In this document: in pieces, positions 1-20,641 of the stretch
How the letters are laid out: the number at the start of each line of letters is the position of its first letter
Numbering within the stretch: the stretch's first letter is position 1
Assembly (NCBI GenBank): GCA_031270825.1
Contig: JAISXH010000022.1
Coordinates: forward strand, 33,710 to 97,709
DNA: 64,000 nt
Origin: Bifidobacteriaceae bacterium
GTDB lineage: Bacteria; Actinomycetota; Actinomycetes; Actinomycetales; WQXJ01
Direction of reading: 5' to 3'
Position numbers and translations under genes: made by a program
Notes under the pieces: generated by a model
The model's input: the letters and a program-made list of their open reading frames with translations, nothing else
Told to the model about the DNA's origin: nothing
Databases searched by the model: none

Positions 1-1
1 C

Positions 2-451
2 CTGCTCCCGGCGGCAAGCTTGGGGCCAGGGGCAATGGCGACGATTCGCCTGTACACGACTGTCAACTTGGTAGTGGCGGCCGTCAACCTGGTGCCATTG
101 GTTCCGCTCGATGGCTACCTCGCTCTACGCTCGGCTCTGGGCGTCCCCAATTTGCGGACTTTGGCGCTCGCGGCGTGGCGAGAGGCGGTCGCCAACCTAT
201 TCCTGAGGACCCGGCGATCCGCTGCGCACCTCCACCGGGGCCAGCCCGCGTGGATGGTTGCTTTTGGTGGGGCCTGCGCGGCCGCACCGTTGTTGTTCCT
301 TGTCGTTTGGTCCAGTCGCTTGGCCGCGCTGTTGCACGATCAGGCCCCCGAGACGCGATCGGCAGTTGGAATCGTCGCAATAGCCGTGACGGTGGGCGCC
401 GCCGTCATCAGGATGCGAAAAGCGCGGCGAGAACGGGTCGCCTTGAGTTGA
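2..451 (+). CDS. M50-like (site-2-protease family) membrane metallopeptidase, C-terminal fragment; gene continues beyond left edge
   Basis: Frame is open back to nt 2 (the ORF-track start at 20 is only a TTG). 'NLVPLVPLDGYLALRSALG' fits the second M50 signature (NxxPxxxxDG) and is followed by hydrophobic helices. It resembles the C-terminal half of 11605..12735 ('NLGPFRYSDGTRL'). Confidence 0.55.
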   Translation: MLPAASLGPGAMATIRLYTTVNLVVAAVNLVPLVPLDGYLALRSALGVPNLRTLALAAWREAVANLFLRTRRSAAHLHRGQPAWMVAFGGACAAAPLLFLVVWSSRLAALLHDQAPETRSAVGIVAIAVTVGAAVIRMRKARRERVALS

Positions 452-572
452 CTTGCGGATCGGGGACATGCCCATCACTGGCCCGCTGTGCTACGCTCTC
501 GACTGCGCACTTCACAGAGATGCTCGCTGTGGTGCGCGGAGCTTTCGGTGGCCACGCTTTGAGGGGGCGTAT

Positions 573-1337
573 GTGGACCTGACCATTGCGAAACTCGCCC
601 GCATGGTCCAATTAACTCCGCGCACGCTGCGGTACTACGAGAGCATCGGATTGATGCCAGATCCGTACAGGACCTCCGGAAACTATCGCGTCTATTGCGA
701 GGAAGACGTCATTAGGCTGGTGCGGATCAAGCGGCTGACGGACCTGGGATTGAGTCTGAGCCAAGTCGCGCAGCTTCTTGACCGACCCGATGCAGATGCC
801 TCCGAGGACGTCTTGGCCGAACTCAGCGCCCGCCTTGAAGCCGAGGGCAGGCAGATTCGCGAACGCCAACAAACGATCACCCGTATCACCAAGGCCAGTG
901 CGTCCCTGGACACCGAGGCGGAGTTCGCCGAGCGGCTTGCCCGGCAGGCTGGGCCGGGGGTTTCCGATGCCGAAAGCGAACACGGGCACATGATCGTAGA
1001 CACGGTCGTCGCCCTGGGAACGCCGAACGACCGCATCCGAATGGAGTGGCTGTTCGAACACGCCGACGCCCTAACCGAAGTCCCGGAATTCCTCCGGCTG
1101 AATGCTCTGGACAAGGACCTGATGGATCTGCCCGAGGAAGCGACTGACCCCGAGATTCAGAAAATGGTGGAGGCGTATGTCGCGGCGCATGCCGAGGCCG
1201 ATACACTCTTCCCGCCGGGGGTGGCCCGCATGTGGTCGCTAGGGGTGGAGGAAGTGTTGGAAGCACTGCTCGAGAACCGTTTCCATGATGCGCAGGTCGA
1301 GGTTCGCAGACGTGTCCGTTCAATCCGGAGGGCTTAG
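573..1337 (+). CDS. MerR-family transcriptional regulator with ~170-aa C-terminal effector domain
   Basis: GTG at 573 lies 5 nt after GAGGGGG (561-567). 'IAKLARMVQLTPRTLRYYESIGLMPDPYRTSGNYRVYCEEDVIRLVRIKRLTDLGLSL' is a typical MerR winged HTH plus dimerisation helix. The ORF-track start at 453 adds a non-homologous extension. Confidence 0.8.
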   Translation: MDLTIAKLARMVQLTPRTLRYYESIGLMPDPYRTSGNYRVYCEEDVIRLVRIKRLTDLGLSLSQVAQLLDRPDADASEDVLAELSARLEAEGRQIRERQQTITRITKASASLDTEAEFAERLARQAGPGVSDAESEHGHMIVDTVVALGTPNDRIRMEWLFEHADALTEVPEFLRLNALDKDLMDLPEEATDPEIQKMVEAYVAAHAEADTLFPPGVARMWSLGVEEVLEALLENRFHDAQVEVRRRVRSIRRA

Positions 1338-1386
1338 GGCGGAACCACTTGAGGTTAACGCGGCGGCAGGGTGTCTTCTTGGTTGA

Positions 1387-2265
1387 ATGTCGACCGCGCA
1401 GCCTAACACCCGCCTTGCAGAACCGCGCCCGCTGAAGCGGACGCCCCTTGAGTTTGCGAGCAGCGAAGCGGCAGAGCTTACGGGTCTGACGGTGCGAGCC
1501 GTGCGCTATTACGGCGAGGTCGGGCTGTTGTCGAAGCCGAGACGCGAGTCAGGTGGCCAGCTTGTGTACACCAGAGAACACATCCTTCAGCTCCTGCGAA
1601 TCAAGCGTTTGACTGCGCTGGGTCTGTCCCTGGACGAGGTAGCAAGCGTGGTGGCCGGTCCACACACTCCTCGGTCCACTCGACTGTTGAAAGACCTGGA
1701 ACGGGCCCTAGCTGATCGGATTGCTGAACTCCAAGCCCAGCGGCGCGTGATCAGGGAGCTTATGAGCACCGGTTCGCCCATCGATACGCTGGCAGAATTC
1801 GCGCGCAGCGTCGCCGCTTTGCGCCGTGTCGGAGCTCTGACCAGGATCGACGACGCTCGTGGAGAGCTACTTCCAGCGCTGGCGGCCGCCGTAGGTGGCA
1901 TTGAGGAAGGCGAGCTGGATGGCTTTGTTGAAGGCTGGGCAGCCGAACTCGGGCTCCTGGAAGAAGCTTTGCTTGGCGTGGACAAGAACAGCAGCGAGGA
2001 CGACGTGACCGGCCTGGCACTGGACTATGGGCGAGTGCTGACGCAGATCTATCAGGACTACGCGATGGAGGGTGCTTCCCATCCTGCGCGTTGGCTGGTC
2101 AATTCAGGAATTGAAGAGATCGCCAGCGCGCTATCCGGCAGTGCGATGAACCCACGCCAGCGCGAGGTCCTGTCGCGAGCTGCAATCATTCTGGCCGCGA
2201 GTGTCAACATTCAAGGTACCGTGGCACCAGATCAAGATCCGGTGGCGGTCGGCGCTGTCGGCTAG
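1387..2265 (+). CDS. MerR-family transcriptional regulator (second, tandem paralogue)
   Basis: 'AAELTGLTVRAVRYYGEVGLLSKPRRESGGQLVYTREHILQLLRIKRLTALGLSLDEV' is a MerR HTH. The C-terminal domain loosely parallels that of 573..1337 ('AEFAERLA' vs 'LAEFARSVA'). Confidence 0.85.
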   Translation: MSTAQPNTRLAEPRPLKRTPLEFASSEAAELTGLTVRAVRYYGEVGLLSKPRRESGGQLVYTREHILQLLRIKRLTALGLSLDEVASVVAGPHTPRSTRLLKDLERALADRIAELQAQRRVIRELMSTGSPIDTLAEFARSVAALRRVGALTRIDDARGELLPALAAAVGGIEEGELDGFVEGWAAELGLLEEALLGVDKNSSEDDVTGLALDYGRVLTQIYQDYAMEGASHPARWLVNSGIEEIASALSGSAMNPRQREVLSRAAIILAASVNIQGTVAPDQDPVAVGAVG

Positions 2266-2283
2266 GCCCCACAAGTGATCACC

Positions 2284-4113
2284 TCACGGGAACGGGTGGG
2301 GCACGAGGTTCGGAATGAAGGACTCCGGGCAGGAGCCCGAATGCGCGCAGGCCGCTTGAACAAGCCGCTGCATGGACAGAGCCCGCTGAACCGACCAACC
2401 GAAGTCGATCGGCAGGAGTCCGGGGACCACGGCCTTGACGGCCCTGACACCAAGGCGACGCAGCGGCGAGGTGGTCTGATCAACGATGACTGCTTCAAAA
2501 CCCGCCTGTTCCACGATACGAGCAAGGCCTTTCAGCGTCAGCGGCGACTGGGCGGGGGGCGTGCGAAGGCTGTGTCCGATTCGGTCGACCGGCGTCACAC
2601 GAGTGTCCTGGCGATCCAGGAGGAACCCGGCCAGTGGCCTGGCGGCCGGGTTCTTATACAGGTCCGCATGGTCCTCCAGACCGACCACCAAGTCGAAATC
2701 CTCAAGCATGGCGGCAGTTTCAGTCAGTCGCGCCTCAGTCATGCGGTGGGTTGGGGGACAGGACGGATCGAACCCGAGTCCGAAATCGGAGCAGATTTCG
2801 GCGAGGGCACCACGTACGGCCTCCTCACCTGTCGGTCTGGCGGAAGCGCCGAAACACAAGGCGCCAGTGCTTAGGCTCTCGCCGACCGCCAGTACTGTTG
2901 GAACCGGTAGCCCAACCGTGCAGTCGAACAGCCAGACGCGCTGCCCGTATAGCCGCATACGGTCCAACATCGAGACCGCAGAAGGACTCGTGACTGTGGT
3001 CTGATCCAATTCCTCCAAGGCGAGTCCGCCATACCAGGCGATGAGGAAAGAGTCCCGTTCGATTGTTTCGAGAAGTCCGTAGAAGGCGGCCTCGGCCATG
3101 GTGCCGCCCACAGCGCAACCAGAGGAAGTCTCGAAAGCGAACAGCTCCGAAGGCGGCTGGGCGCCGTAGTAGACCAAAGACTCTGGCAGCGCGACCACAT
3201 CCCATCGCTTCAACGAGAACCCTGGTGTCCACGAGATGGTGCGCGGCACTGCGAACGGCCAATCAGCGCGCGCCAGTCCGAATTCATCCGGTCCGATAAC
3301 CGGAACTGGGATCCCAGAGCCGTCACCGCGCCACCGACGGGCATTGGGCGGCGGCCGGTAGCCGGCAATACGTTCGAGCGCCTCAAGAACTGCGATCGCT
3401 TCAGAGTCCCGGTAGGTTTCGGCATGCCCTCCCCAGTGCAGCGACCAATTCTCGTGGAGCGGCCCAAGACGCTTTTCGCCTGCGACTTTGGCGGGAATTT
3501 CAGACTCGAGATCCCAGAACCAACGAGTACCTGCGACTGCGGTGGCGGGATGGACAAGGTCTTCAGGGCGGATCGCCGCAGCCTCGAATCGGTCTCTTGC
3601 GCCAGACCTCGGCCCGATGGGGCCGTCGACTGACAAATCTGACCGGTACTCGACCGGAGGGGCGACCGCCAGTAGTTCGGGGTGACAGGTCGGGTCGCAC
3701 GGCTCCGCAGAGAGCATCCGGAAGCTCTCAACACGCAACGTGAATCGGCCGATGCCGACCAAGACGGGCGAAAGTTCGCAGTCGCCAGCGAGCAGGTCGA
3801 CGACGTTCGAGACCAACTGGTCTTCCCAGGGGTTGACATGTGGTCCCCGATCCGGGTTCGGCAGCGGTTGGCCACCCTCCAGCACACGGATCTCGCAGCC
3901 AACAGACGAATCATGCCCTACTGCGTCGAGGACGCAGGGCACGCACTGAGTTCGCCCGGGGTGTGAGACGAACACGTGCGTCGCAGAACGATATAGCACT
4001 GGGCCGGACCAGCTCACGGCCAGGTCTTCAACGTGGCTACCGCGCGAAGTCGGCTCTGTGACATCGATCAGGAGCCAACGGCGCGGGTCGCCGGACGATG
4101 CCGAGACGGTCAT
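2284..4113 (-). CDS. YcaO-domain cyclodehydratase (YcaO-1) with ~230-aa N-terminal extension
   Basis: 'FAFETSSGCAVGGTMAEAAFYGLLETIERDSFLIAWYGG' is the YcaO core, and 'AVVPGLLPIDFGW' is the typical YcaO C-terminus. The N-terminal part carries CxxC ('QCVPCV') and CxxxC ('PCDPTCHP') pairs. Confidence 0.9.
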   Translation of the reverse strand: MTVSASSGDPRRWLLIDVTEPTSRGSHVEDLAVSWSGPVLYRSATHVFVSHPGRTQCVPCVLDAVGHDSSVGCEIRVLEGGQPLPNPDRGPHVNPWEDQLVSNVVDLLAGDCELSPVLVGIGRFTLRVESFRMLSAEPCDPTCHPELLAVAPPVEYRSDLSVDGPIGPRSGARDRFEAAAIRPEDLVHPATAVAGTRWFWDLESEIPAKVAGEKRLGPLHENWSLHWGGHAETYRDSEAIAVLEALERIAGYRPPPNARRWRGDGSGIPVPVIGPDEFGLARADWPFAVPRTISWTPGFSLKRWDVVALPESLVYYGAQPPSELFAFETSSGCAVGGTMAEAAFYGLLETIERDSFLIAWYGGLALEELDQTTVTSPSAVSMLDRMRLYGQRVWLFDCTVGLPVPTVLAVGESLSTGALCFGASARPTGEEAVRGALAEICSDFGLGFDPSCPPTHRMTEARLTETAAMLEDFDLVVGLEDHADLYKNPAARPLAGFLLDRQDTRVTPVDRIGHSLRTPPAQSPLTLKGLARIVEQAGFEAVIVDQTTSPLRRLGVRAVKAVVPGLLPIDFGWSVQRALSMQRLVQAACAHSGSCPESFIPNLVPHPFP

Positions 4114-4212
4114 GAAAAGATGCCTTCCGAATTAAGGACGAGGCGGGATGCGATCTGCGCACCCGGCACGGTGAAACTAGCACACTGTTCACCACCTTGG
4201 TGGCCGGCGGAT

Positions 4213-4242
4213 TTGACCTTGACGTTACGTCAAGATCTTGAC
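4213..4242. promoter_or_regulatory. Operator-like cluster of four TTGAC half-sites forming two overlapping perfect palindromes in the divergent YcaO-1 / docking-protein intergenic region
   Basis: Sequence is aTTGACcTTGACgttacGTCAAgatcTTGACt. CTTGACGTtACGTCAAG (4218-4234) is a perfect 8-1-8 dyad. GTCAAGATCTTGAC (4229-4242) is a perfect 14-bp palindrome. It lies 9-38 bp upstream of the 4251 ATG and about 100-130 bp upstream of the 4113 start. Confidence 0.45.
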
Positions 4243-4250
4243 TGGCAGCC

Positions 4251-6281
4251 ATGAGTCAACTCGCATCATCGCCAGTCCTGCCGAGGGCCGCAGATCCGGG
4301 CCGGGACGGCTCTAAGTTCACCCTTCGCCTGCGCGCAGACACTATGTACAGTGCATCCAACACCGGCGTTCGATTCTCCAATGTCACGAGTTCTTTCGAA
4401 ATTGCTGGCGACCATGCCTATAAGGCGTTCAAGGCCATCGCTCCGCTGCTCGACGGTTCTTACACCCGCGAGGACTTGGCCCGCGTGCTCGGCGGACCCA
4501 TGTGGGCGAAAGTGGAGGCCTTCGTCGAGCCGTTAGTATCCCGAGGATTCGTCCGCGAGATGGATCCCTGCCCCGACGTCGAGGTCTCGGACGAGGAACA
4601 GTCCAGATTCGCCGAACAGCTTTCGTTCATCGCCCAGTTCGTTGACGATCCAAAACGCCGCTTCGCCCGGTTTCGCGACTCCGAGATCGCTGTGGTGGCA
4701 GGCGGCGCGTTCGGAGAATGGGTCGGTCATGTGCTGGCCCGCAACGGACACCGGCGCCTTGTGGTGGTTGACGACCCGTTGGTCGAGCTGACCAAGTCTG
4801 CCAGTCGGCCTGCCGTACTGGTTATTCCACCGACGCCCGCTGGGGTCAAGCTGCTGGCCGACGGTCGGCTTGGCGATCTGGCCCAGTTAGTGTTGGCGGC
4901 CTCCGCTGTGGGAGACGACATAGTCATCGGCCCCTTGTCGGCCGCCGGAACTTCTCCAGTGACGTGGGCAGATGCGATCTCAGCGATGGCAGAGCATGAT
5001 TCGGCACGCGACGTCGCCCACTACTGGGCATCAGCCTGGGCCGGAGTCCACACGGGCTCCCCGGCCACCACGCTTCCCGCAGTGCAAAGACTGGCTGGAA
5101 CCTTCGCGGCAATCGACATATTCCGGGCCCTCACCGGCATCGCGGAATCGGAGACCGCTGACTCGGTTCTGGTGGTTGATTCGGCCCACGGCGAAGCCCG
5201 GCGCCATCGGGTGGTCCCCCACCGCCAGCTACATCGATCTAGACCAACTCTGCCGCCTGCTGGTAGAGGGGTGGGGGCGCTCAGGAGGAGCGCTCCCACC
5301 ACAGCCAGAGTGTCTCCCGAATGGGGACGCGTCTGCTCAACAGTCGCCGATTCATTGACTTCTCCGATCGTGGGATTCGAAGACGGCGACCTAGAGCAAC
5401 TGCCGGTCAAGGTATCCATCGCTCGCCTGGCGCTGGGCACGGCCGGGAGCGTTGCCGTGGGAGCGGCTGACCTGTGGGATGTCGCGGGGGCACGCGCTCG
5501 AGCTACCCGTCAGGCGTTGGCGTTGCGATTGGAGACCTGGGCCCCGTGGGAGGAATCCGACGGCCTTTTCAGGGGCCCTGATGTGGTGAGCGAGCTGGAC
5601 GGGATGATTGAGTCGAACGCTCGGTCCGTCGGGCCGCTGGTCCAAGGACGCGATCTGATCACCGACGACCTGGTCTGGGCGCCAGCGGCGGCGTTGGCCA
5701 CCATGTCCCTCGCCAATGCATCGGGCGTGTTCGCCCGGTCGGCCCTCGGCATAGGCGTCGGCTTGGACTACGACGAGGCCTTGGAGCGGGCTATCTCTTC
5801 AGCGGCCTCGCGCCGGGCGGTGTCCACGTTGGAGAGGCCGAGCCTGCCTGTGATTGATCTGGCCGATGAATCGCCGGAAGGTGTCTTCCTTCGCGAAAGC
5901 GCGAAACATGCTGGCGTGGAGATCGAAGTCTTGCGTGCGGGACGGCATCTTCAGCGCGATGTGGTGGTCGCACGGTGCCGGAGCGGGAACACGGCTCTGT
6001 GGGAGCTGGGGACCGGGCCGAGTGAGCACGAGGCGTGGGCGTCGGCGGTTGTAGGGGTCCTCGGGGCGGTCCGCAGAGCTCAGGCGGGCAAGCCACATTC
6101 CACTTGGACCATGACGGCCCTGCCCGCCTTCGATGCCATGGCCCTGGTGGCGGGTGTCCCCCAGGACAATCCGGGCGACGAGGCGCGAGCGTTCGCCTTT
6201 GACATCACGACTGACGAGGTGTCGGCGCTGGGCGTAGTTGCAGTTAAGGTGCTGACCGCAGCTGGGGAGGCGGTCCGATGA
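4251..6281 (+). CDS. TOMM/thiopeptide-type leader-binding docking protein (RRE + ThiF/E1-like, 'ocin-ThiF-like')
   Basis: N-terminal PqqD-like pattern 'IAPLLDGSYTREDLARVLGG...FVEPLVSRGFV'. Rossmann-like 'IAVVAGGAFGEWVGHVLARNG'. About 676 aa, sited between a YcaO and a SagB-type gene, with its stop overlapping the next ATG (ATGA at 6278). Confidence 0.65.
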   Translation: MSQLASSPVLPRAADPGRDGSKFTLRLRADTMYSASNTGVRFSNVTSSFEIAGDHAYKAFKAIAPLLDGSYTREDLARVLGGPMWAKVEAFVEPLVSRGFVREMDPCPDVEVSDEEQSRFAEQLSFIAQFVDDPKRRFARFRDSEIAVVAGGAFGEWVGHVLARNGHRRLVVVDDPLVELTKSASRPAVLVIPPTPAGVKLLADGRLGDLAQLVLAASAVGDDIVIGPLSAAGTSPVTWADAISAMAEHDSARDVAHYWASAWAGVHTGSPATTLPAVQRLAGTFAAIDIFRALTGIAESETADSVLVVDSAHGEARRHRVVPHRQLHRSRPTLPPAGRGVGALRRSAPTTARVSPEWGRVCSTVADSLTSPIVGFEDGDLEQLPVKVSIARLALGTAGSVAVGAADLWDVAGARARATRQALALRLETWAPWEESDGLFRGPDVVSELDGMIESNARSVGPLVQGRDLITDDLVWAPAAALATMSLANASGVFARSALGIGVGLDYDEALERAISSAASRRAVSTLERPSLPVIDLADESPEGVFLRESAKHAGVEIEVLRAGRHLQRDVVVARCRSGNTALWELGTGPSEHEAWASAVVGVLGAVRRAQAGKPHSTWTMTALPAFDAMALVAGVPQDNPGDEARAFAFDITTDEVSALGVVAVKVLTAAGEAVR

Positions 6282-7924
6282 GAACCACCGCGGGCCACAT
6301 GCGGACCGCCGAGGAGCCGTTGGCTTACCCAGGCGCCCGGCCGGGAACGGCGCTGACCGAACTCGGCGAAGACTGGCTCTCGATTCCCCTAGGAAGTGCG
6401 GCGCGTTGCTACGCCGACCTGATTTTCGATCGCGCCGCCAGCGGCATGCCGATCAAGAAATGGCCTGTCGACTGGGACGACGCACCGTGGCCGCAGAAGT
6501 TCTACCCGGCGGCGCAATTCACCAGTTTGCCCGATGTCGCACAGCCTGGAGGGTTGGCGGACACGGGTCGGGTGGAACTGGGTCGAGCCTTGTGGGACCT
6601 GATGTTCTATGCCTATGGGGTGGTGGCGCGACGCAGTCGAGTCAACAACAACGAGTCCACGGGCATGCTCATCAACGCCGAAGAGATCCGCTGGGGCCGG
6701 GGGGCTTCTTCCGGTGGAGGACGATACTGCGCCGGGGTCTATGTCGTGATCGGTCAAGGCCTCTCGCTGAGTTCGGGAATTTATCACTATTCGCCCATTT
6801 ACCACGGCCTTGAACTGCTTGCCGGAGGCGACTGGACCGGCGCTGTGGCCCACGCTCAAGGTTATGGCGCCGCCCAGTCTTGCTACCTGGTGATCTCGCT
6901 CAAATACTGGCAGTCAGCCTTCAAGTACAACGATTTCGCCGCTCAAGCGACCTGCATGGACCTGGGCACGTTGATGGGGACGTGGCGCTATCTCCTGGGA
7001 CCGTCTGCTGACATGATTCAGCCGGACCTGTGGGTGAACGAACCAGCCCTAGCCGGCATCCTGGGCATTGATTCGCAGGCCGAAGCCGTCGCCGCAGTCC
7101 TTGGCCTCGGCGGCGTCACCGCTTCACCGGTCGCCGCCAGACCCGCCCCAGCCATGCCGCAGGCGGACGAACGTTCCCGAGAGGTCTACACATTTGTCAC
7201 CCAGCGGGCGTTGCAACGCGATGCCCTGGCCGAGCGCGGGGTGCCGGCCGATTTGTCTGCGGACTTCCCGGTCCCGCAATCCCTAGCCTGGTCGGTCGAG
7301 ATCGATGCTGATGCCGCCGGCAGGATCGCCTCCACCCTTCGGCGCGAGACATCATTCGGGCGGTTCGATGGGATTCCGCTTCCGCGCCGCGCCCTGCTAG
7401 AGGCCCTGATCGAAAGCGACACGGCCCAGAACGTGACCGCCGGGACGTTCTCTGGGGCAAAGGATGGGGCTGTCAGCCTGTTCGTGTTGGTGAAGGGGGT
7501 CGAGGGTCTCGCTCCGGGCTGTTATAGGTACGACAGACCAAGTCAAGACTTGGAGCGAATCGGGGGACAGGAAGCAATGGCAGTCATTCAGCGACGCTAC
7601 TTTCTCAACAACTACGACCTGGGCAGGGCAGCTGCGGCAGTGATTTTCGCCGGAGACGTCGTAGCGGTCGCGGAGCGGTACGGAGTGCGCGGATACAGGG
7701 CCCTCAACACCGCTGTGGGCGCCGTCTGCCAACACCTCCATCTTGAATGCGCCCGAAGAGGGATAGGAGCGGGCGCCGCGCTCGGGGTCGACGCGGCCGC
7801 CGCAGCGGATGCTCTGAAGTTGGGGCGCAAGAGGCCCCGGCCGCTGCTGACCATGTTCCTCGGCCATGACCGACCGAACTCGGGTGCCCTCGACGTCCCA
7901 CTCGCTCCCGAAGGAAGCAGGTGA
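6278..7924 (+). CDS. SagB/ThcOx-type FMN-dependent azoline dehydrogenase (nitroreductase fold, two lobes)
   Basis: 'WGRGASSGGGRYCAGVYVVI' and second-lobe 'IQRRYFLNNYDLGRAAAAVIFAGD...GYRALNTAVGAVCQHLHLEC' resemble SagB-family motifs. Its context between the docking protein and LanB supports the call. Confidence 0.75.
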   Translation: MRTTAGHMRTAEEPLAYPGARPGTALTELGEDWLSIPLGSAARCYADLIFDRAASGMPIKKWPVDWDDAPWPQKFYPAAQFTSLPDVAQPGGLADTGRVELGRALWDLMFYAYGVVARRSRVNNNESTGMLINAEEIRWGRGASSGGGRYCAGVYVVIGQGLSLSSGIYHYSPIYHGLELLAGGDWTGAVAHAQGYGAAQSCYLVISLKYWQSAFKYNDFAAQATCMDLGTLMGTWRYLLGPSADMIQPDLWVNEPALAGILGIDSQAEAVAAVLGLGGVTASPVAARPAPAMPQADERSREVYTFVTQRALQRDALAERGVPADLSADFPVPQSLAWSVEIDADAAGRIASTLRRETSFGRFDGIPLPRRALLEALIESDTAQNVTAGTFSGAKDGAVSLFVLVKGVEGLAPGCYRYDRPSQDLERIGGQEAMAVIQRRYFLNNYDLGRAAAAVIFAGDVVAVAERYGVRGYRALNTAVGAVCQHLHLECARRGIGAGAALGVDAAAAADALKLGRKRPRPLLTMFLGHDRPNSGALDVPLAPEGSR

Positions 7925-7928
7925 CCTA

Positions 7929-11608: not shown

Positions 11609-12735
11609 ACCGCACAGCTGACGCGCGAACTTGGAGCCCGAGCCTCTCGGACCGCCTATTGATTGGACCACCCACGTGGAACGGCGGGGCCATGACAGCT
11701 GAGATCGCCTTGGCGGGAGAAGCTCGAACTTGGAATGCTGGCCTGCTCGAACTCCTCGTTTTGGAGTCGATCGACGGCGAACGCGACATCCCCGCCATTG
11801 CGGCACACGTATCTGAACGGACCGGCCGTGCGGTCGAAACCGGGATGGTTGGTCAAGTCGTCGGACGGTTGGCGGTCAACGGCATCGTACAACGTGACTT
11901 GGGTGTGGAGACCGAATCGATGCGCCAGGCGGACGCTCGATCCGATGAAGCAGCGAAGGCGATGGACGGCGTCGAACGCATCGATCAGGGGCTCTTTGGA
12001 ACGCTATCTAGTGCCATGTGGAAGCTCGGACGGCGCCTTCCTACCGTCGGGATCGCTTCGGTGGCGGCCGGCGCGGCTCTTGCCGCCGTAGCACTTTTCG
12101 CCGTGAACGCTGATGTCTACCTGGCAGCGTTGCGAGCTGTGCGCCATGGGCGGGCGGCCGATGCCGTGATCGCGCTGGTGGCGTGCCTCGCCTGGCAGCT
12201 CCTAGTTATCGTGGCGCACGAATTCGCTCACGGACTGACCTTTAGTTCGATCAACATCCGCCGGCCAGTCCTTGCGCTAACCAAAGTCGGGCGCAGGACC
12301 CTGCCCAACACTCAGCTAGACGGACTGTGGCTGGTGCCTTCCACCGCTCGGCGGCTAGCTGTGGTGGCGGTCGGCCCGCTCATCTCAATCTCATCGGCGA
12401 TCGTGCCCGCTGCCGTGCTCGTGGTCACAGCGCCAAGCTCGCTCTTGGCTGACTGGGCGGTATTCGCCCTAAGCATGGAAATCCTAATGGCCGTCCTCAA
12501 CCTGGGCCCATTTCGCTATTCCGACGGCACACGGCTTATCGAATCCTGGGCGAGGTGTCGCAACCTGCCGGCCCTCGCTGTCGCAAGGGTCGTGGCTAAA
12601 CAGCCGCTCCGGGCCGGTGTCCCCAGGCGGGCCCGCCGCGCCATCGCCGCCTACCTGCCCGCGTCAGGTCTCAGCTCGCTCTTGCTGCTTGCAGCGGCCG
12701 CCCTGTGGGTCTTGACCGTACTGGGGGTCGTCTAA
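11605..12735 (+). CDS. Fusion of a PqqD-like (RRE-type) N-terminal domain to an M50-like polytopic metallopeptidase
   Basis: 'HEFAHGLTF' (HExxH) and 'NLGPFRYSDGTRL' (NxxPxxxxDG) with at least 5 hydrophobic helices. The N-terminal 'LLELLVLESIDGERDIPAIAAHVSERTGRAVETGMVGQVVGRLAVNGIVQ' follows the PqqD/RRE pattern. ATGA overlap with the preceding gene. Confidence 0.7.
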   Translation: MNRTADARTWSPSLSDRLLIGPPTWNGGAMTAEIALAGEARTWNAGLLELLVLESIDGERDIPAIAAHVSERTGRAVETGMVGQVVGRLAVNGIVQRDLGVETESMRQADARSDEAAKAMDGVERIDQGLFGTLSSAMWKLGRRLPTVGIASVAAGAALAAVALFAVNADVYLAALRAVRHGRAADAVIALVACLAWQLLVIVAHEFAHGLTFSSINIRRPVLALTKVGRRTLPNTQLDGLWLVPSTARRLAVVAVGPLISISSAIVPAAVLVVTAPSSLLADWAVFALSMEILMAVLNLGPFRYSDGTRLIESWARCRNLPALAVARVVAKQPLRAGVPRRARRAIAAYLPASGLSSLLLLAAAALWVLTVLGVV

Positions 12736-12768
12736 CGCCCCATTCCCCGCGAAAGCGGAACCCAAAGC

Positions 12769-12790
12769 TTCGAGGCCACCAGGCCTCGAG
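12769..12790 (+). other. Stem-loop between peptidase gene and precursor gene (plus GNRA hairpin CCGCgaaaGCGG at 12747-12758)
   Basis: tTCGAGGCC-acca-GGCCTCGAg forms an 8-9 bp stem with a 4-nt loop. No T-tract follows. Confidence 0.35.
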
Positions 12791-12868
12791 GGGGCAGCGG
12801 GCCAGCCGGTCCGCGCCAAAACCTGAATGATCCGGGCCAATTGGCCCCAGAACCACAAAGGAGCACCC

Positions 12869-13048
12869 ATGTCCAACACCGATATCGCGGGCCTTGCCGC
12901 CGAGCTTGACGCTCTGAACGCCGAGACGCTGGAAGTCAAGGATTACGTCGACTACTCCGACGCAGCCTTCGCCTCAAGTTCGTCCTGCAGTTCGACCACT
13001 TCCACGTGCTCGTCCTGCAGCTCGACATCGTCGTGCGCCGCGCTGTGA
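12869..13048 (+). CDS. RiPP precursor peptide (59 aa): acidic helical leader + Ser/Thr/Cys-only core
   Basis: The ATG at 12869 lies 7 nt after AAAGGAG. Sequence: MSNTDIAGLAAELDALNAETLEVKDYVDYSDAAFA-SSSSCSSTTSTCSSCSSTSSC-AAL. It sits inside the biosynthetic operon, directly upstream of the ABC exporter. Confidence 0.85.
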   Translation: MSNTDIAGLAAELDALNAETLEVKDYVDYSDAAFASSSSCSSTTSTCSSCSSTSSCAAL

Positions 13049-13058
13049 CCGGCCGGCA

Positions 13059-13130
13059 CCGACAGTAGGCCGCAATGGCGGCTGTCGGAGGGGTCCGGGC
13101 GCGGTCTAGGCCGTTCTAAACCCCTCCGAC
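13059..13130 (+). terminator. Two mutually exclusive stem-loops immediately after the precursor stop (possible partial terminator / mRNA-stabilising hairpin)
   Basis: CCGACAG(13059-13065)/CTGTCGG(13082-13088) competes with GTCGGAGGGGT(13084-13094)/ACCCCTCCGAC(13120-13130), which is an 11-bp stem. No clear U-tract. Confidence 0.4.
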
Positions 13131-13174
13131 ACCGCCTTGAACCGCAGTTCGATTCCTACAAGAGGAGGCACGCA

Positions 13175-14173
13175 GTGAGCACTTCCGGCCTAGCGCTATT
13201 CATGGGCAACAGTCGTGTGCGAGACCTTTCCGGCAGCCCGATCCAGGCGAAACCGCCGAAGGCCGACTCGCCCGCCATCGCAGCACGAGGCGTCAGCAAG
13301 ACCTACGGGACCGTGGCAGCCCTGACTGACGTGGATCTCGAGGTCGCCCCCGGCGAGTTCTACGGGCTAATCGGGCCTAACGGAGCCGGCAAGACCACTC
13401 TGATGGAGATTATCCAAGGGTTGCTTGCCGCAGATTCGGGAACCATTTCGATACTCGGCGGTAGACCCGCCGACCGTTCTCCGGCGCTCCTGCGCCGGGT
13501 TGGCATCCAGCCCCAGAACACCGCTTTCTTCACGCGGGCGACCGCCCGTGAACACCTAACAACACTGGCCGACATCTACAGGGTTGAGCGGCGCCGAGTC
13601 GACTCGACGCTCGAGGCTTTCGGATTGGTCAGCGCGGCAAAGACGCGCGTGGACAAACTCTCGGGCGGAGAACGCCAGAAGCTGGCCGTGGCTTCGGCGA
13701 TGCTCCACGACCCGGAAGTGCTGTTCCTGGATGAACCCACAGCCGCGATGGACACCGAGTCGCGGGCCGAATTGGTCCACATGCTTAAGGGCCTTCGCGC
13801 CGGAGCGACCACCGTTCTTTACACCACCCATCTGCTGCACGAAGCAGAACGTCTGTGCGACCGGATCGCCATTCTTGACCACGGACAGATCATAGCGAAT
13901 GACACACCCGCTCAGTTGCTGGCTGATTCAGGTTTGCCTAGCCGCATCATTCTGCCGCTGGAGGCCGGCCGACTGGACCGGATCAAGTCCCTTCCCGAAG
14001 TGTTGGAAATCGACCTGCGAGACGGGCAGGTCGAAATCGCCGTCATGGCGGCAGGACCGGCGCTGGCCGCCTTGGTTCGTGCCGGTCTGGACGTGTCCGA
14101 CGTCCGTGTCGAGGCGGCGACTTTGGAAGACGTCTTTCTACGGCTCTCTGGAAAGGAGCACCACGATGAATAG
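13175..14173 (+). CDS. ABC transporter ATP-binding protein
   Basis: Walker A 'GPNGAGKTT', signature 'LSGGERQK', Walker B 'VLFLDEPT'. The GTG at 13175 follows AGAGGAGG. Confidence 0.95.
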   Translation: MSTSGLALFMGNSRVRDLSGSPIQAKPPKADSPAIAARGVSKTYGTVAALTDVDLEVAPGEFYGLIGPNGAGKTTLMEIIQGLLAADSGTISILGGRPADRSPALLRRVGIQPQNTAFFTRATAREHLTTLADIYRVERRRVDSTLEAFGLVSAAKTRVDKLSGGERQKLAVASAMLHDPEVLFLDEPTAAMDTESRAELVHMLKGLRAGATTVLYTTHLLHEAERLCDRIAILDHGQIIANDTPAQLLADSGLPSRIILPLEAGRLDRIKSLPEVLEIDLRDGQVEIAVMAAGPALAALVRAGLDVSDVRVEAATLEDVFLRLSGKEHHDE

Positions 14174-14909
14174 CTTTGTGTCTCTGGCGAGGGCGCAAGG
14201 GCGAGCCAGCCTGCGCGATCCCGCGACGTTGTTCTTTACTTTCCTCTTCCCCGTCCTCCTGCTGGTGGTGTTCTCGCGGGCGTTCGGTCAGGCGGCGGGG
14301 CCTGATGGTGTTCTCGCGATGCAGGCGGTGGGCCCGAACGTGGTGGCTTTCGGCGCCGCCTATGTTGGGATGTTCACGGCTTCCCAGTCGCTGGTCGAGT
14401 GGCGCGCATCCGGAATGAGCCGGGTCCTTTTCGCCGCGCCGGTCCGAACCGGCGGAGTGCTGGCTGCGAATCTGGCGGTCGGTCTGGCTTTGGGGCTCGC
14501 CCAGGCCGGGATCCTGGTGGCGTTGTCCGTGTTGCCGGGCCTCAACATGTCGCTGTCCGCTAGCGCCTGGCTGGCCCTACCAGTCGTGACGCTGGGCATA
14601 GCGGCCTTCTTCAGCATTGGCATGGTGATAGGGGCGCTGTGTAAGACGGTGGCGTCAGCCGCAGGTGCGATCAACGCAGTCGTTTTACCCATGGCCTATG
14701 TCTCTGGCGCTATGCTCCCGGCGGAACTCTTGCCGGACTGGGCCACTGCGATCGGTCGCGCTCTGCCGATGCGCTATATGGTCGAAGCGATTGGCGGCAG
14801 CCTGACCGGAGTGGCGCCGTCGTCCACGATCGGTCTGGGAGCAATCGTCTTGGCTGGGGTCGCGGCATTATTCTTTGGTGGCGCCACGAAGATCGTAAAA
14901 TGGCTGTGA
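14166..14909 (+). CDS. ABC-2 type transporter permease
   Basis: The ATG at 14166 overlaps the ATPase stop. Six hydrophobic segments, and the size and position are typical of ABC-2 exporter permeases. The ORF-track start at 13899 lies inside the ATPase gene. Confidence 0.8.
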   Translation: MNSFVSLARAQGRASLRDPATLFFTFLFPVLLLVVFSRAFGQAAGPDGVLAMQAVGPNVVAFGAAYVGMFTASQSLVEWRASGMSRVLFAAPVRTGGVLAANLAVGLALGLAQAGILVALSVLPGLNMSLSASAWLALPVVTLGIAAFFSIGMVIGALCKTVASAAGAINAVVLPMAYVSGAMLPAELLPDWATAIGRALPMRYMVEAIGGSLTGVAPSSTIGLGAIVLAGVAALFFGGATKIVKWL

Positions 14910-14912
14910 CCA
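14763..14912 (+). repeat. Left copy of 150-bp direct repeat (3' end of permease gene + first codons of YcaO-2)
   Basis: Hand alignment to 18127..18276 shows 5 mismatches in 150 nt. Confidence 0.9.
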
Positions 14913-16600
14913 CGCCGGCTGAGACTGGCGCTAAATGGATCCGCCGCCTTGGATTCGACACCGTTCTAGTTCACCCGGCACCGGCCAAGGACGCTCTTGG
15001 CTTCGAGCAGGAGCTGCAGCGGCGATCAGCCGACCTCGCCGAGAAGTTTGTTTTCGCAGGCGGCTCCGATGCTGGTGGCCGTGAGCTGACAAACGGGCCA
15101 AGCCGTTTTCCTGGTGCCAGCGGGTTGGCCGACGCGGTCCAGGATTTCGCCAACGAGTGCGGACTGTGGCAAGGGTCCAATGACGAGGCTGTCCTATGGC
15201 CCGTGCTTGAGATCGACTCGCGGGCCTGCACCCTCAGGCGCTTCGGCATCCGAACGGCTCCGAGTGACGGGTTGCGGGCAGTCAGCCCCGACCCTGGCCG
15301 TCGCGGCGGGCTGTCGCGCGAATCCCCTCTGGAAGCACTCGATCTCCCTCCAGACGTGGCGGCCGGACAGGGTTTGGGTTACCTCGGTAACACCGGCGCA
15401 TGGGGCCTTGAGTGGACCACGGCCGCACCGGTTTCCGACAAGGTTTGGATCGATGTCGGTGGAAGACCCTTTGAATTGAACTGGTCAGGACACGAGAACA
15501 CTTACGAACTGTCGTTGCGGTCATGCGTGCTGGAAGGATTGGAGCGCACGGCTGGAGCGCTTGGCGGCGGAACGCAGGTCGTTGTCTCCCCTGCGGTTGA
15601 ACTCGACGCGAGGTTCATGTCCCCCGGCGCGTTCGGACGCTACCCGGACTCCGCGTACGAGCATGAGCTGGTCGCGTTCGATCCAGCAGAGAGCCATGAG
15701 TGGGTGGAAGCACAGAGTCTCACGAGTGGCGAACCCGTGTATGTGCCGGTGGAGCTGGTGCATTATGGACGTCACGTTGCGCGCCGTTGGGCCTTTGGCA
15801 CGTCCTCAGGTTGGGCGGTCGGTTCGACATCGGAAGAGGCGGCATTCTTCGGACTGGTCGAGCTTCTCGAGAGAGACGCGATTGTCTCCAGCTGGTACGG
15901 TGGGATCTCCCCGACGCCGGTCAACGCGTCAACCGTGGAAGAAGTTCAAGACATATTGTCCAGGGCCGCTCTCCTCGACTGTCAGTTTCATGTCAGCCAA
16001 GTCCCATCTCAAATCGGGATGCCCGTCATGGTCGCGGTTGCCAAATCGCCGGAGGCCGCCGTGTTCGGATCGGCTGCACATCCCGATCCGCGCCGGGCTT
16101 TGATCGGCGCGGTCAACGAGGCCTGGGCCTACTTGCCGGAGAGGGAACGCACGGCGCGGAGGTTGCGGTCTAGGGGCCTCCTGCCGAAGGCGGGGCCAGC
16201 TAACGTGGAAACCATTGACGACCACGCCTCGTTGGCATTCGAGCCAACCCTCCTGATCGGCCTGGACAGATTCACGCATGACGACAGCATCGCCGGGTTC
16301 CCCGTCGGCGACATAGGGCCTTGGCATCCAAACGCCCTGGCCGAACGCGGACCTCTGGGCGCAGCAGTCGATCAGTTGGCCGGACACGGTCTCGAGGCTC
16401 TAGTTGTCGCAGCGTCTTCTCCGACAGCCCAATCCATGGCTGTCCATGTGGTGGCATCTCTCGTGCCCGGTCTGGTTCCAATCGATTTCGGATATCGCCG
16501 CCAACGGGCGCCGCAGATGGACCGAATCCTCGAACTGGCTGAGCTGTTCACCGGGCAGCGCCCCGAAGCGCCGTGGCCCGAACTCCACCCCTTCAGCTGA
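14900..16600 (+). CDS. Second YcaO-domain protein (YcaO-2), stand-alone
   Basis: 'WAFGTSSGWAVGSTSEEAAFFGLVELLERDAIVSSWYGG' and C-terminal 'SLVPGLVPIDFGYRRQRAP'. The start overlaps the permease stop by 10 nt. Confidence 0.9.
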   Translation: MAVTTPAETGAKWIRRLGFDTVLVHPAPAKDALGFEQELQRRSADLAEKFVFAGGSDAGGRELTNGPSRFPGASGLADAVQDFANECGLWQGSNDEAVLWPVLEIDSRACTLRRFGIRTAPSDGLRAVSPDPGRRGGLSRESPLEALDLPPDVAAGQGLGYLGNTGAWGLEWTTAAPVSDKVWIDVGGRPFELNWSGHENTYELSLRSCVLEGLERTAGALGGGTQVVVSPAVELDARFMSPGAFGRYPDSAYEHELVAFDPAESHEWVEAQSLTSGEPVYVPVELVHYGRHVARRWAFGTSSGWAVGSTSEEAAFFGLVELLERDAIVSSWYGGISPTPVNASTVEEVQDILSRAALLDCQFHVSQVPSQIGMPVMVAVAKSPEAAVFGSAAHPDPRRALIGAVNEAWAYLPERERTARRLRSRGLLPKAGPANVETIDDHASLAFEPTLLIGLDRFTHDDSIAGFPVGDIGPWHPNALAERGPLGAAVDQLAGHGLEALVVAASSPTAQSMAVHVVASLVPGLVPIDFGYRRQRAPQMDRILELAELFTGQRPEAPWPELHPFS

Positions 16601-16648
16601 CGGTAGCCAACTTGGCTGAGCCGCCTGGAACCAACGAAAGACCGAAAC

Positions 16649-17275
16649 ATGCATGACACCGCAGCCTCGCAGGCATCCGTCGTAAGCGTGGACGCGCAGC
16701 CGTCCTTCCGGATCCCTAATCCCGCCGTGGTCTTACGATGGGCCACCCTCTACTACGCGATCGCGGCGGCCGTCGCCCGTCCGGTGATCGGCGGGTTGGC
16801 TGCCGCCGTCGCAGTAGGCCTGGCTTGGGCACCGCCGATCCCGGGCTTCGGGACAGCCCGACAAGGCCTTGAGGTCAGTCCTGTGGCTGCGCCGGAGTCC
16901 TCTCACCGTGTCCCACGGCGGCTTCGTCAAGCGGTGCTTGCCACCTCCTGGCTTGAAGCTGTGGTGTTCGGCGCGGGAGGACTGGTCTCTTGGGCCGTGG
17001 ATGAGTTGGCCGCTTGGCCCATCGCAGTCGCGGTGGCCGCCACCTGCCATATCACAACTGTCGGCCTGGTCGCACGGCGGATCATTGACGCGTTCGCCCT
17101 GCCGATCGCCTGGGCGTCCTGCGTGGCAGCACTGGCAGTCACCGTACAAGACGGCCACCCCTTGCGTGGTTGTGCGATCGCTGCTGCGACACTCGCCCTG
17201 GTCACCGCGAGTTATGCTCGCCACATCGGTATTCGGGAGACTTCTTCCAAGGCCGAGGACGGTGGCTTGCGATGA
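16649..17275 (+). CDS. Hypothetical integral membrane protein (about 4 TM helices)
   Basis: Ala/Val/Leu-rich hydrophobic segments. Its stop overlaps the next ATG (ATGA at 17272). I recognise no motif. Confidence 0.5.
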   Translation: MHDTAASQASVVSVDAQPSFRIPNPAVVLRWATLYYAIAAAVARPVIGGLAAAVAVGLAWAPPIPGFGTARQGLEVSPVAAPESSHRVPRRLRQAVLATSWLEAVVFGAGGLVSWAVDELAAWPIAVAVAATCHITTVGLVARRIIDAFALPIAWASCVAALAVTVQDGHPLRGCAIAAATLALVTASYARHIGIRETSSKAEDGGLR

Positions 17276-17760
17276 GCGGGCTGCCGATCCGCGTGGTGAC
17301 GTTTTCCCGACACGGTTCCACCGATGAGGTGGGCAGGTGGGTCGCGCGATCCTTGGCGGGGTTAGTTGATGCTTCGGTCTACCAAAATGATTCGACCGGC
17401 GATCCGGAGACAGGCCTTGGCGCGGCGAGCAGGGTTGTGGTCGGAATGCCTGTCTACGCCAACCATTGGCGTCCGGAGGCGCGGCGCTTCCTGAACCGCT
17501 GCGCGTCAACCTTAGGGCAACGGGAGGTCTGGCTCTTCACCTGTTCGCTCGGCGGTGGCTTGGACGACCTGGACCACCTCGAGCCAGAGCTTGTGCCAGT
17601 AGGTCTAGCCCATTTCGGAGGCAAACTGGACTGGGATCGTCTGGCCGTCCCCGAGCGCATGCTGATGCGGGCCCTCGGCCAAACGTCGTGCGATCGGCGC
17701 TCGCGCGCGGATGTCGAAGCCTGGGCCGCTTCGATTGTGCGAACTGCGGCGTTGACCTAG
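17272..17760 (+). CDS. Flavodoxin-like domain protein (HemG/flavodoxin_5-like)
   Basis: 'IRVVTFSRHGSTDEVGRWVA' resembles the flavodoxin phosphate-binding loop. About 162 aa, with 'VVVGMPVYANHW' and 'VWLFTCS' beta-strand patterns. Confidence 0.55.
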   Translation: MSGLPIRVVTFSRHGSTDEVGRWVARSLAGLVDASVYQNDSTGDPETGLGAASRVVVGMPVYANHWRPEARRFLNRCASTLGQREVWLFTCSLGGGLDDLDHLEPELVPVGLAHFGGKLDWDRLAVPERMLMRALGQTSCDRRSRADVEAWAASIVRTAALT

Positions 17761-18126
17761 AGGGCGGCTAGACCGATTTCGGCAGGCTTCGTGATCGCAT
17801 GGAGCACTGGCCGCCTGAAGGGAGTTTGGCACTCTGGGCCCCAATTCTCGCCGCTTGCCGGAGCGATTCAGCCGGTCGGGGTGGCCCTTGAACCGGAGTT
17901 CTGCCGCTTGATGGCGTGAGTCGTGCGTCGGGCTTGTGGCTTGGGGGTTCGGTGACGGTTTGGCGGGAATGTGTCACTTAGCCGGGTGGCGACCTCTGCG
18001 GGTGCGGGGTCCAGCGTGCGAGCAAGAAGGGCAAGCGCGGTGGGCTGGTTGGCCGGAACCGCAGGCCCGCGTCCCCTTGCGTACTGTGCCTTTGCGGAAT
18101 CAGCACAATCACCGTCCCCTTGCGTA

Positions 18127-18360
18127 CTGCCGATGCGCTATATGGTCGAAGCGATTGGCGGCAGCCTGACCGGGGTGGCGCCGTCGTCCGCGATCGGTCT
18201 GGGAGCAATCGTCTTGGCTGGGGTCGCGGCGTTGTTCTTTGGTGGCGCCACGAAGATCGTCAAATGGCTGTGACCAGCTCGAGAGGTTTGTTCGCGGAGG
18301 CTGCGCCGACGCTGGCGGCCGCCCGCCGCCAAACAGGCTAAACCGCTTCGCCAGCGCCAA
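18127..18360 (+). pseudogene. Remnant copy of the permease 3' end / YcaO-2 5' end junction (right copy of direct repeat plus decayed YcaO fragment)
   Basis: 18127-18276 matches 14763-14912 at 145/150 positions. 18281-18360 aligns more loosely (about 70% by eye) to 15041-15125, with about 128 bp (14913-15040) missing. A 16-bp direct repeat GTCCCCTTGCGTACTG (18071 and 18114) sits at the left junction. Confidence 0.8.
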
Positions 18361-20581: not shown

Positions 20582-20641
20582 GCGGCAAGCAAGTGCGGCT
20601 TCGGGCCTGGGAATCCGTTTATTCACCGGATTCCCAGGCCG
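20582..20641 (+). repeat. 60-bp intergenic hairpin repeat, copy 1
   Basis: gcggcaagcaagtgcggcttcgggCCTGGGAATCCGtttattcaCCGGATTCCCAGGccg has a 12-bp perfect stem. It matches 38213-38272 at 53/60 positions. Confidence 0.8.

Follow-up and report, generated by a model that had tools for sequence, protein, structure and literature searches.

Gene content and conservation of the cluster

The window analysed here is a 64-kb stretch of DNA from a metagenome-assembled genome (MAG) of a Bifidobacteriaceae bacterium (proteins MDR1634080-MDR1634091). Its region from nucleotide 2284 to about 17760 is an intact biosynthetic gene cluster for a peptide that is synthesised on the ribosome and modified after translation (a RiPP), with 11 core open reading frames (ORFs) that are all full length. 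The cluster probably belongs, as a divergent member, to an actinobacterial family that is conserved and chemically uncharacterised and whose members would make a linear polyazole/dehydroalanine peptide. The gene map is based on an ORF listing and on hidden Markov model (HMM) scans of the window proteins with the Pfam and NCBIfam libraries, which reproduce the gene calls and family assignments of a preliminary description of this DNA. The elements of the cluster, with the bit scores of their HMM matches, are as follows.

2284..4113, minus strand: YcaO-1, cyclodehydratase of the thiazole/oxazole-modified microcin (TOMM) type, 609 residues (Pfam YcaO 198 bits; TIGR03604 208 bits)
4218..4234: CTTGACGTTACGTCAAG, a perfect palindrome of 17 bp between the divergent YcaO-1 and F genes
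4251..6281, plus strand: F protein, divergent ocin-ThiF-like docking protein with an N-terminal RiPP recognition element (RRE), 676 residues (TIGR03693, weak)
6278..7924, plus strand: SagB-type flavin mononucleotide (FMN) dehydrogenase, 548 residues (TIGR03605 105 bits; Pfam Nitroreductase)
7929..10547, plus strand: LanB_N, split LanB glutamylation protein, TbtB-like, 872 residues (Lant_dehydr_N 70 bits)
10544..11608, plus strand: SpaB_C-type protein, 354 residues (Pfam Lant_dehydr_C 124 bits)
11605..12735, plus strand: membrane HExxH metalloprotease, predicted leader peptidase, 376 residues (invariant motifs and transitive homology)
12869..13048, plus strand: precursor peptide, 59 residues (NF033400 39.7 bits; TIGR03892 35.7 bits)
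13077..13136, plus strand: stem-loop between the precursor and ABC genes (folding energy)
13175..14173, plus strand: ATP-binding cassette (ABC) transporter ATPase, DrrA-like (ABC_tran 114 bits; TIGR01188 213 bits)
14166..14909, plus strand: ABC-2 permease (Pfam ABC2_membrane 84 bits)
14900..16600, plus strand: YcaO-2, second TOMM-type YcaO, 566 residues (Pfam YcaO 187 bits; TIGR03604 178 bits)
16649..17275, plus strand: hydrophobic protein with four to five predicted membrane segments, 208 residues (hydropathy; family HMM)

As the preliminary description had it, YcaO-1 lies on the minus strand and is followed by a plus-strand run from 4251 to 17760, and all six of the start/stop overlaps it listed (at 6278, 10544, 11605, 14166, 14900 and 17272) are present in the sequence. 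The SagB gene is linked to the F gene by an ATGA overlap, and the permease start overlaps the stop of the ABC gene. The LanB_N ORF opens at a first ATG at 7866; its conserved start is at 7929 (M22), which gives a protein of 872 residues identical to the NCBI call.

Related loci, found from precursor homologues and by a genome-wide scan with a LanB_N profile, share a single gene order: F, YcaO1, SagB, LanB_N, SpaB_C, HExxH protease, one or more precursors, ABC ATPase, permease, YcaO2 and membrane protein. The order of these 11 genes is kept in seven complete genome loci (Corynebacterium sp. MSK297, Gleimia europaea, Ancrocorticia populi, an Arthrobacter sp., two Microbacterium and one Rothia MAG), and four partial loci (Actinomyces gerencseriae, a second Bifidobacteriaceae MAG, one metagenome contig and the JGI contig L015) agree as far as they are sequenced. 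The closest relative is the second Bifidobacteriaceae MAG (L005), which is 58-69% identical over the three genes covered. A search with the SpaB_C profile places about 35 protein clusters from at least 12 genera in the family, and Trueperella, Clavibacter capsici, Brevibacterium and Curtobacterium are among the named sources. The family is thus spread over several actinobacterial orders; Actinomyces, Rothia, Corynebacterium, Gleimia, Trueperella and Clavibacter are host-associated genera. In the window YcaO-1 is inverted and lies upstream of F, whereas the other loci (L006-L013) carry it on the strand of F and SagB, between these two genes. In the flanks of the related loci nothing that lies upstream of F is shared across genera, and downstream of YcaO2 the small membrane protein alone is conserved among the relatives. 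The conserved core is therefore complete within the window, contrary to the suggestion that the cluster is cut by the left window edge.

Nor is the layout unprecedented: the cluster is conserved across Actinomycetota, and its logic was published in silico in 2015, when Cox, Doroghazi and Mitchell described clusters of C. diphtheriae, C. ulcerans and C. pseudotuberculosis under the name 'coryneazolisin' (PMC4603692). The same study reports inactivated coryneazolisin clusters (PMC4603692). A further locus, L014 (GCA_015471965.1, BNJU01002619.1), has a short SpaB_C-like ORF that lacks the C-terminal motif, a YcaO fragment of 172 residues and many small ORFs, and looks like a fragmented or decayed copy. 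The contig L015 (JGI 3300072016, 7.9 kb) carries a more distant variant with SpaB_C, an HExxH protease of 425 residues, ABC, permease and a YcaO of 635 residues; an M20-type amidohydrolase follows the YcaO, and the sequenced part has no recognisable precursor.

The GC content of the cluster region is 61-64%, compared with mostly 65-70% in the remainder (window positions 1-20000 versus 20001-64000), a modest dip that is consistent with horizontal acquisition. The cluster might then be a silent or decaying island that yields no product in this host. This lower GC content, the inversion of YcaO-1 relative to the family order and the decayed copies elsewhere (L014 and the inactivated coryneazolisin clusters) are what such an island could show, but its 11 core ORFs are full length with their catalytic motifs kept and their junctions coupled, the precursor has a good ribosome-binding site (AAAGGAG, preceding its ATG), and L005 retains its level of identity over the genes that can be compared. 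Decay is accordingly a very improbable explanation.

Precursor peptide and modifying enzymes

The precursor is the 59-residue peptide MSNTDIAGLAAELDALNAETLEVKDYVDYSDAAFASSSSCSSTTSTCSSCSSTSSCAAL, with the leader MSNTDIAGLAAELDALNAETLEVKDYVDYSDAAFA and the predicted core SSSSCSSTTSTCSSCSSTSSCAAL. In the predicted core, 21 of the 24 residues are Ser, Thr or Cys, Ile does not occur, and the C-terminal end is CAAL; its monoisotopic mass before modification is 2220.81 Da. The boundary between leader and core is set by the family alignment and would place the cleavage after AFA. Homologous precursors have a leader of the type ..ETxEVKDYVDYxxMAFG and a core of the type STCSSSSSSSCSSTCxSCCxSTSSCATA; the cores of the family are 24-28 residues long. 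Almost identical cores occur in Ancrocorticia, Corynebacterium, Gleimia, Rothia, Arthrobacter and Microbacterium (L001/L009, L007, L008, L010-L013), which points to a product under strong selection or to a recent horizontal transfer. Several related loci have two copies of the precursor gene. In Gleimia europaea the precursor gene (L008, 14759-15139) is broken by a masked run of N, and the core there is unread.

The chemistries of the YcaO, SagB and LanB enzyme families are established, and each family is represented in the cluster. The F protein is the conserved first gene product of the family loci. Its assignment as a docking protein in the preliminary description is weakly supported: residues 25-103 match the leader-binding RRE of PbtF (PDB 8T19, E=0.0016), the ocin_ThiF_like model TIGR03693 (E=1.9e-12) gives 46 bits, far under its cut-off of 562, and TIGR03882 is matched at E=0.003. 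SagB scores 105 bits with TIGR03605, above the cut-off of 78. The pairing of two YcaOs with this one dehydrogenase, pointed out earlier, is borne out.

The two YcaO proteins are 29% identical and fall, across the family, into two distinct orthologue groups, in both of which the ATP/Mg motifs ExxER and ExxERD are conserved. Both have an N-terminal extension of about 200 residues without a family match. The best PDB matches of YcaO-1 are LynD, TruD and MusD, and those of YcaO-2 are TruD and LynD (52 and 50 bits), compared with 40 and 29 bits for the archaeal YcaOs of the thioamide type. YcaO-1, too, fits LynD and TruD better than it fits YcaOs of the thioamide type. With TIGR03604 (TOMM_cyclo_SagD) YcaO-1 scores 208 and YcaO-2 178 bits, both under the cut-off of 219. 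Across the family (L004, L006-L013, L015), YcaO-1 ends in PHPFP in all orthologues (window 2284-2298), while YcaO-2 ends in PHPFS, and in LHPFS in the window (16586-16600). In YcaO-2 the last Pro of the PxPxP feature is thus systematically replaced, and the feature is present in part. From their conserved motifs and nearest relatives, both YcaOs look like active azoline-forming cyclodehydratases. The simplest reading is that the two share one F protein and one dehydrogenase, and with 21 cyclisable residues in the core the need for two cyclodehydratases is readily understood.

Paired YcaOs with split chemistry occur in bottromycin biosynthesis, and YcaO-2 could similarly install another backbone modification, such as an amidine or a thioamide, in what is still an azole/dehydroalanine peptide. 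The low identity to YcaO-1, the PHPFS C-terminus in place of the canonical PxPxP, the presence of a single dehydrogenase and the location of the YcaO-2 gene, which in every family member lies apart from the other enzymes behind the transporter genes, would fit such a role. Library scans of the cluster ORFs, however, detect no gene for TfuA or for sulfur delivery, the azoline-forming TruD and LynD are the best-scoring matches of YcaO-2, which reaches 178 bits with TIGR03604, and the cyclisable residues of the core already account for two cyclodehydratases. Another modification by YcaO-2 is therefore unlikely.

LanB_N matches TbtB (PDB 6EC7) with E=6e-18, and the alignment runs to the C-terminal end of both proteins, so that LanB_N has no fused elimination domain. 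An elimination domain hidden in SagB, as in LazF, can be dismissed as well, since the N-terminus of SagB is too short and gives no PF14028 match. The tRNA genes of the window are Pro-CGG (23913-23989), Ser-GGA (46752-46838) and Ser-GCT (61977-62067). No tRNA-Glu gene lies near the cluster, and a LanB-type dehydratase would therefore need the tRNA-Glu of the host.

The single SpaB_C protein and the predicted product

The choice between a macrocyclic thiopeptide and a linear product turns on whether the SpaB_C-type protein is an eliminator or a [4+2] enzyme. In the six-frame translation of the whole window the family HMM gives one match and no second SpaB_C/PF14028-type ORF, and in ten relatives it gives one match per locus and no second SpaB_C within about 10 kb on either side. 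The earlier statement that the cluster has one such protein thus extends to the window as a whole and to ten related loci. Alignment of the SpaB_C family profile to NisB (4WD9) with HMMER maps the following residues.

NisB R786, in the NisB motif HIRLR: R69 in the window protein
NisB R826, in the NisB motif ERYGG: R153 in the window protein
NisB H961, in the NisB motif IIHVHNNR: H320 in the window protein

The NisB variants R786A, R826A and H961A glutamylate their substrate without eliminating (PMC4979651; PMC4341554). In 31-36 homologues of the window protein R69, R153 and H320 are invariant or near-invariant; 35 homologues conserve them, with Lys in place of R153 in two. P0044 departs from this, as a degraded copy with RYRG and without the third motif. 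TbtD has HLRIY in place of HxRLR and no RYGG, so that at least two elimination residues are missing there, as far as weak HMMER alignments show. On these residues, SpaB_C is concluded to be the predicted glutamate-elimination partner of LanB_N and not a pyridine synthase, and the cluster is concluded to have no [4+2] enzyme. Since this enzyme is absent, no pyridine macrocycle would form, and the product is probably without the pyridine ring of the thiopeptides.

Several points weigh against this assignment and against a linear product. The most specific match of SpaB_C is the NCBIfam model TbtD_PbtD_pyrid. The AlphaFold2 (AF2) model of SpaB_C, with a predicted local distance difference test score (pLDDT) of 90, is nearest to the solved structures of TbtD and PbtD (Foldseek E=1e-10, TM-score 0.69-0.79, compared with 0.50 for NisB), and the elimination domains of MadB, MibB and NisB are its next structural matches. 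The precursor passes the thiazolylpeptide models of NCBI, NF033400 (thiazolyl_B; 39.7 bits, cut-off 30) and TIGR03892 (35.7 bits, cut-off 25). The search for a [4+2] enzyme covers the 64-kb window of a MAG, and such a gene may lie elsewhere in the genome. In addition, every family member is chemically uncharacterised, the orthology to the clusters of the C. diphtheriae group is judged from the leader and a published description, and we infer how the YcaOs divide the work, where the leader is cut, what the membrane and flavodoxin proteins do and that the product is linear.

Some of these points would suit a true macrocyclic thiopeptide, in which SpaB_C carries out both the elimination and the [4+2] reaction or the gene of a pyridine synthase lies in another part of the genome. 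The resemblance of the F protein RRE to PbtF and of LanB_N to TbtB fits this explanation too. The thiazolylpeptide models, however, mainly read the leader and a Ser/Cys-rich core, and a match to them is therefore no proof of macrocyclisation. To our knowledge no structure of a stand-alone elimination protein has been solved, and for this reason the rank of the fold cannot tell an eliminator from a cyclase; the fold was set aside as an arbiter and the catalytic residues were used in its place. The score with the pyridine-synthase model is only 79 bits, far under the cut-off of 325. SpaB_C keeps the full elimination triad that is apparently missing in TbtD, and we know of no bifunctional eliminator/cyclase. 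A partner acting in trans would need an unlinked gene both here and in each of the ten relatives from different genera, all of which have one SpaB_C. The family cores, at 24-28 residues, show no obvious conserved Ser pair that would frame a macrocycle, and Cox et al. classed a related family as being without a [4+2] enzyme (PMC4603692). Taken together, a macrocyclic thiopeptide is quite unlikely, and the linear polyazole/dehydroalanine peptide is the preferred product.

The order of steps proposed for this peptide is taken from the work on thiomuracin and goadsporin cited in PMC10676384. In the first step the RRE of the F protein would bind the precursor through the LEVKDYVD..AF part of its leader. 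The two ATP-dependent YcaOs would then form azolines from the Cys and part of the Ser/Thr residues of the 24-residue core, with YcaO-1 and YcaO-2 probably differing in residue or site preference, and SagB would oxidise the azolines to azoles. In the third step the TbtB-like LanB_N would glutamylate the remaining Ser/Thr from Glu-tRNA(Glu), and SpaB_C would eliminate the glutamate to give dehydroalanine (Dha) and dehydrobutyrine (Dhb). No pyridine macrocycle would be made in the fourth step; the membrane HExxH protease would cut off the leader, the ABC-2 transporter would export the product, and the transporter and the small membrane protein together may provide self-protection. The first three steps follow from the established enzymology of the families, while the fourth and the details of the scheme are suggestions. 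The product would be a linear peptide of azoles and dehydro amino acids, made by a logic like that of goadsporin with parts of the thiopeptide type.

Coryneazolisin is among the closest known systems. Its clusters have two D proteins and lanthipeptide-like split dehydratases, have no [4+2] protein, and are predicted for that reason to be non-macrocyclic; their product is not known (PMC4603692). The window likewise has two YcaO (D) proteins and a split LanB and lacks a [4+2] enzyme. The coryneazolisin precursor MEVEGLEVNDYVDADDTAFFSMCSSTTSSSSCISTSSS has a leader homologous to that of the window (LEVNDYVDADDTAF versus LEVKDYVDYSDAAF), and in both the leader is followed by a core that is nearly all Ser, Thr and Cys. 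The leader motif LEV(K/N)DYVD..D.AF fits both. Of 19 aligned leader residues 11 are identical, a score that 0 of 5000 shuffles attained. The published precursor type has a leader of the form ...GLEVNDYVDADDTAFF and a core of 10 Cys/Ser/Thr, Ile and 5-7 Cys/Ser/Thr (PMC4603692). The cores differ, being SMCSSTTSSSSCISTSSS(SS) in coryneazolisin and SSSSCSSTTSTCSSCSSTSSCAAL in the window, which has 24 residues and no Ile. In coryneazolisin one D protein is described as discrete and the other as fused to a C protein, whereas in the window F is separate and the YcaOs have the extensions of about 200 residues; the hosts differ as well. As judged from the leader and the published description, the window family probably corresponds to coryneazolisin or is its sister. 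The name 'coryneazolisin' does not appear in the searched literature beyond PMC4603692.

Clusters of the berninamycin type also carry paired YcaOs. Thiopeptide clusters, such as those of thiomuracin (tbt) and GE2270 (pbt), resemble the window in their TbtB-like LanB, PbtF-like RRE, SagB and a precursor that passes the thiazolylpeptide models. The window differs from them in lacking the class-defining [4+2] pyridine synthase, in a SpaB_C that keeps the elimination residues and in its family's longer cores.

Unlike goadsporin, the window has an F protein of the thiopeptide type, a thiopeptide-like leader, an HExxH protease and an ABC-2 transporter. Goadsporin has an N-acetyltransferase, GodH, and an Ffh-type immunity protein, GodI; library scans find neither an acetyltransferase nor an SRP54-type domain in any cluster ORF. 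The goadsporin and spongiicolazolicin systems share with the window the use of a YcaO and an FMN dehydrogenase followed by a split LanB, the absence of a pyridine synthase and a linear product (PMC10676384, PMC4603692). Goadsporin has a single fused cyclodehydratase (PMC4603692), whereas in the window the two YcaOs and the F protein are each encoded on their own. The spongiicolazolicins, at 28-29 residues, are near the family in core length. The dehydrazoles, represented by carnazolamide (Pei, Zhu and Nair 2023, PMC10676384), are also linear peptides rich in azoles and Dha that derive from a Ser/Thr/Cys-rich core. They were rejected as the matching class, as their LanM-type DUF4135 dehydratase, long nitrile-hydratase-like leader and S8 protease make up an unrelated machinery (PMC10676384).

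The view that the layout is neither that of a canonical thiopeptide nor that of goadsporin therefore stands, and the searchable literature, which leaves subscription-only papers uncovered, gives no characterised product and no characterised member of the family. The product is probably a new compound, and it is plausible that it is also a new scaffold. It is rather unlikely that the family makes a chemically undescribed RiPP class, in which nearly all of the 24-28 core residues would become azoles or dehydro amino acids, YcaO-2 would provide a modification or regiochemistry foreign to goadsporin and the thiopeptides, and a protease with an RRE-like domain would link the loss of the leader to export at the membrane. 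As of 2023, the recognised classes that combine a split LanB with azoles and dehydro amino acids were the thiopeptides and the goadsporin/spongiicolazolicin group (PMC10676384). The family is a third arrangement, with parts of the thiopeptide type but without the ring-forming enzyme. Once one product is solved, at least 35 protein clusters would have a chemistry, and it would become clear how a substrate of nearly all Ser, Thr and Cys is shared out among two YcaOs and a dehydratase; a new antibiotic or signalling scaffold might also emerge. Corynebacteria of the diphtheria group carry related clusters according to Cox et al. (PMC4603692). Nothing is overturned by the cluster, since its enzyme families are all known and the layout was already flagged in silico in 2015; it is a good target for natural-product discovery, but not an unprecedented one.

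Membrane protease, transport and neighbouring genes

The protease of 376 residues has no significant direct match in Pfam or NCBIfam, with M50 at 13 bits (E=0.057). It shares with its orthologues the invariant motifs H205-E-x-x-H209, N235-T236 and D307, all within hydrophobic segments, of which there are about five to six after a conserved soluble N-terminal domain of about 140 residues. The orthologues match the model NF041824 (daptide_HExxH) at about 1e-7, with 31-33 bits against a cut-off of 300. The protease of L015, encoded at the equivalent gene position, matches this model over nearly its full length (93 bits, E=1.9e-26), and hhalign aligns the family profile to it over 322 columns that take in the N-terminal domain, at a probability of 98%. 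By this transitive homology the protease is a relative of the daptide-type RiPP intramembrane metalloproteases, as a predicted member of the superfamily and not an equivalog. It shares with the daptide-type protease (NF041824), EpeP/YydH and TglG the HExxH motif, a downstream Asp in hydrophobic segments and a soluble N-terminal domain. It differs from the daptide-type protease in sitting in an azole/Dha cluster and not in a daptide cluster, and in having no significant library match. Proteases of the M50 type act in the maturation of epipeptides and pearlins (PMC10885120).

The preliminary description called this protein an RRE-M50 peptidase and counted membrane M50 peptidases with RRE-like domains among the features that together match no characterised layout known to it. 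Its metalloprotease part is supported by the HExxH and Asp motifs and by the daptide-type kinship, which places it in a superfamily already modelled in NCBIfam and not in a new architecture. The RRE part is weakly supported. The N-terminal domain is modelled as three helices (residues 45-91, pLDDT 68-86) in a single-sequence AF2 model that is poor overall (pLDDT 45). The top PDB matches of its profile are the RRE region of PaaA and Fur-type winged helices, both weak (E=0.11), and hhalign aligns its 'DG..t..EI' motif with the F protein RRE at a probability of only 7.7%. The domain may thus be described as RRE-like.

The ABC ATPase is conserved in the family. The hydrophobic protein of 208 residues has no Pfam or NCBIfam match. 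An HMM built from its positional counterparts finds it as the sole match in the window (E=1.3e-6), with a high compositional bias, and it is a candidate immunity protein or component of a membrane complex.

The genes around the cluster are the following.

2..451, plus strand: C-terminal fragment, about 150 residues, of a daptide-type HExxH/M50 intramembrane metalloprotease (NF041824)
453..1337, plus strand: MerR-family regulator 1, 294 residues (Pfam MerR_1 65 bits)
1387..2265, plus strand: MerR-family regulator 2, 292 residues (Pfam MerR_1 63 bits)
17272..17760, plus strand: Flavodoxin_5 (HemG-like) protein, 162 residues (Pfam Flavodoxin_5 53 bits)
18438..20588, minus strand: pckG, the right-hand neighbour

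The scans agree with the preliminary description on the two MerR genes and the M50 fragment at the left and on pckG at the right. Neither the two MerR genes nor the left fragment nor the flavodoxin gene has a counterpart in the related loci, and by this comparison they would be lineage-specific or merely adjacent. The left fragment matches daptide_HExxH at profile positions 251-370 of 379 (E=4e-23, 82 bits), a much better fit than that of the protease within the cluster, and scores 19.7 bits with Peptidase_M50, under the cut-off. It was rejected as a paralogue of the protease within the cluster, to which it has no BLAST similarity, and may belong to a second, different RiPP locus just outside the window.

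The palindrome lies 17 nt upstream of the start of F, within the 137-bp divergent region between YcaO-1 and F, and is unique in the window. It may be an operator for a MerR protein, given its proximity to the two MerR genes. This suggestion is based on its position and not on statistics, as 18 of 100 shuffles gave at least one match when up to three mismatches were allowed. Library scans detect no ligand domain of the TipAS type in the MerR proteins.

The spacer of 131 nt between the precursor and ABC genes folds into the stem-loop at 13077-13136 (-61.4 kcal/mol, z=-3.2), which is not followed by a run of T. It is a possible attenuator or mRNA-stability element, like the hairpins that are often found after RiPP precursor genes. 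The flavodoxin gene overlaps the stop of the membrane-protein gene in an ATGA junction, by which it is translationally coupled to a gene of the conserved core while being itself specific to this lineage.

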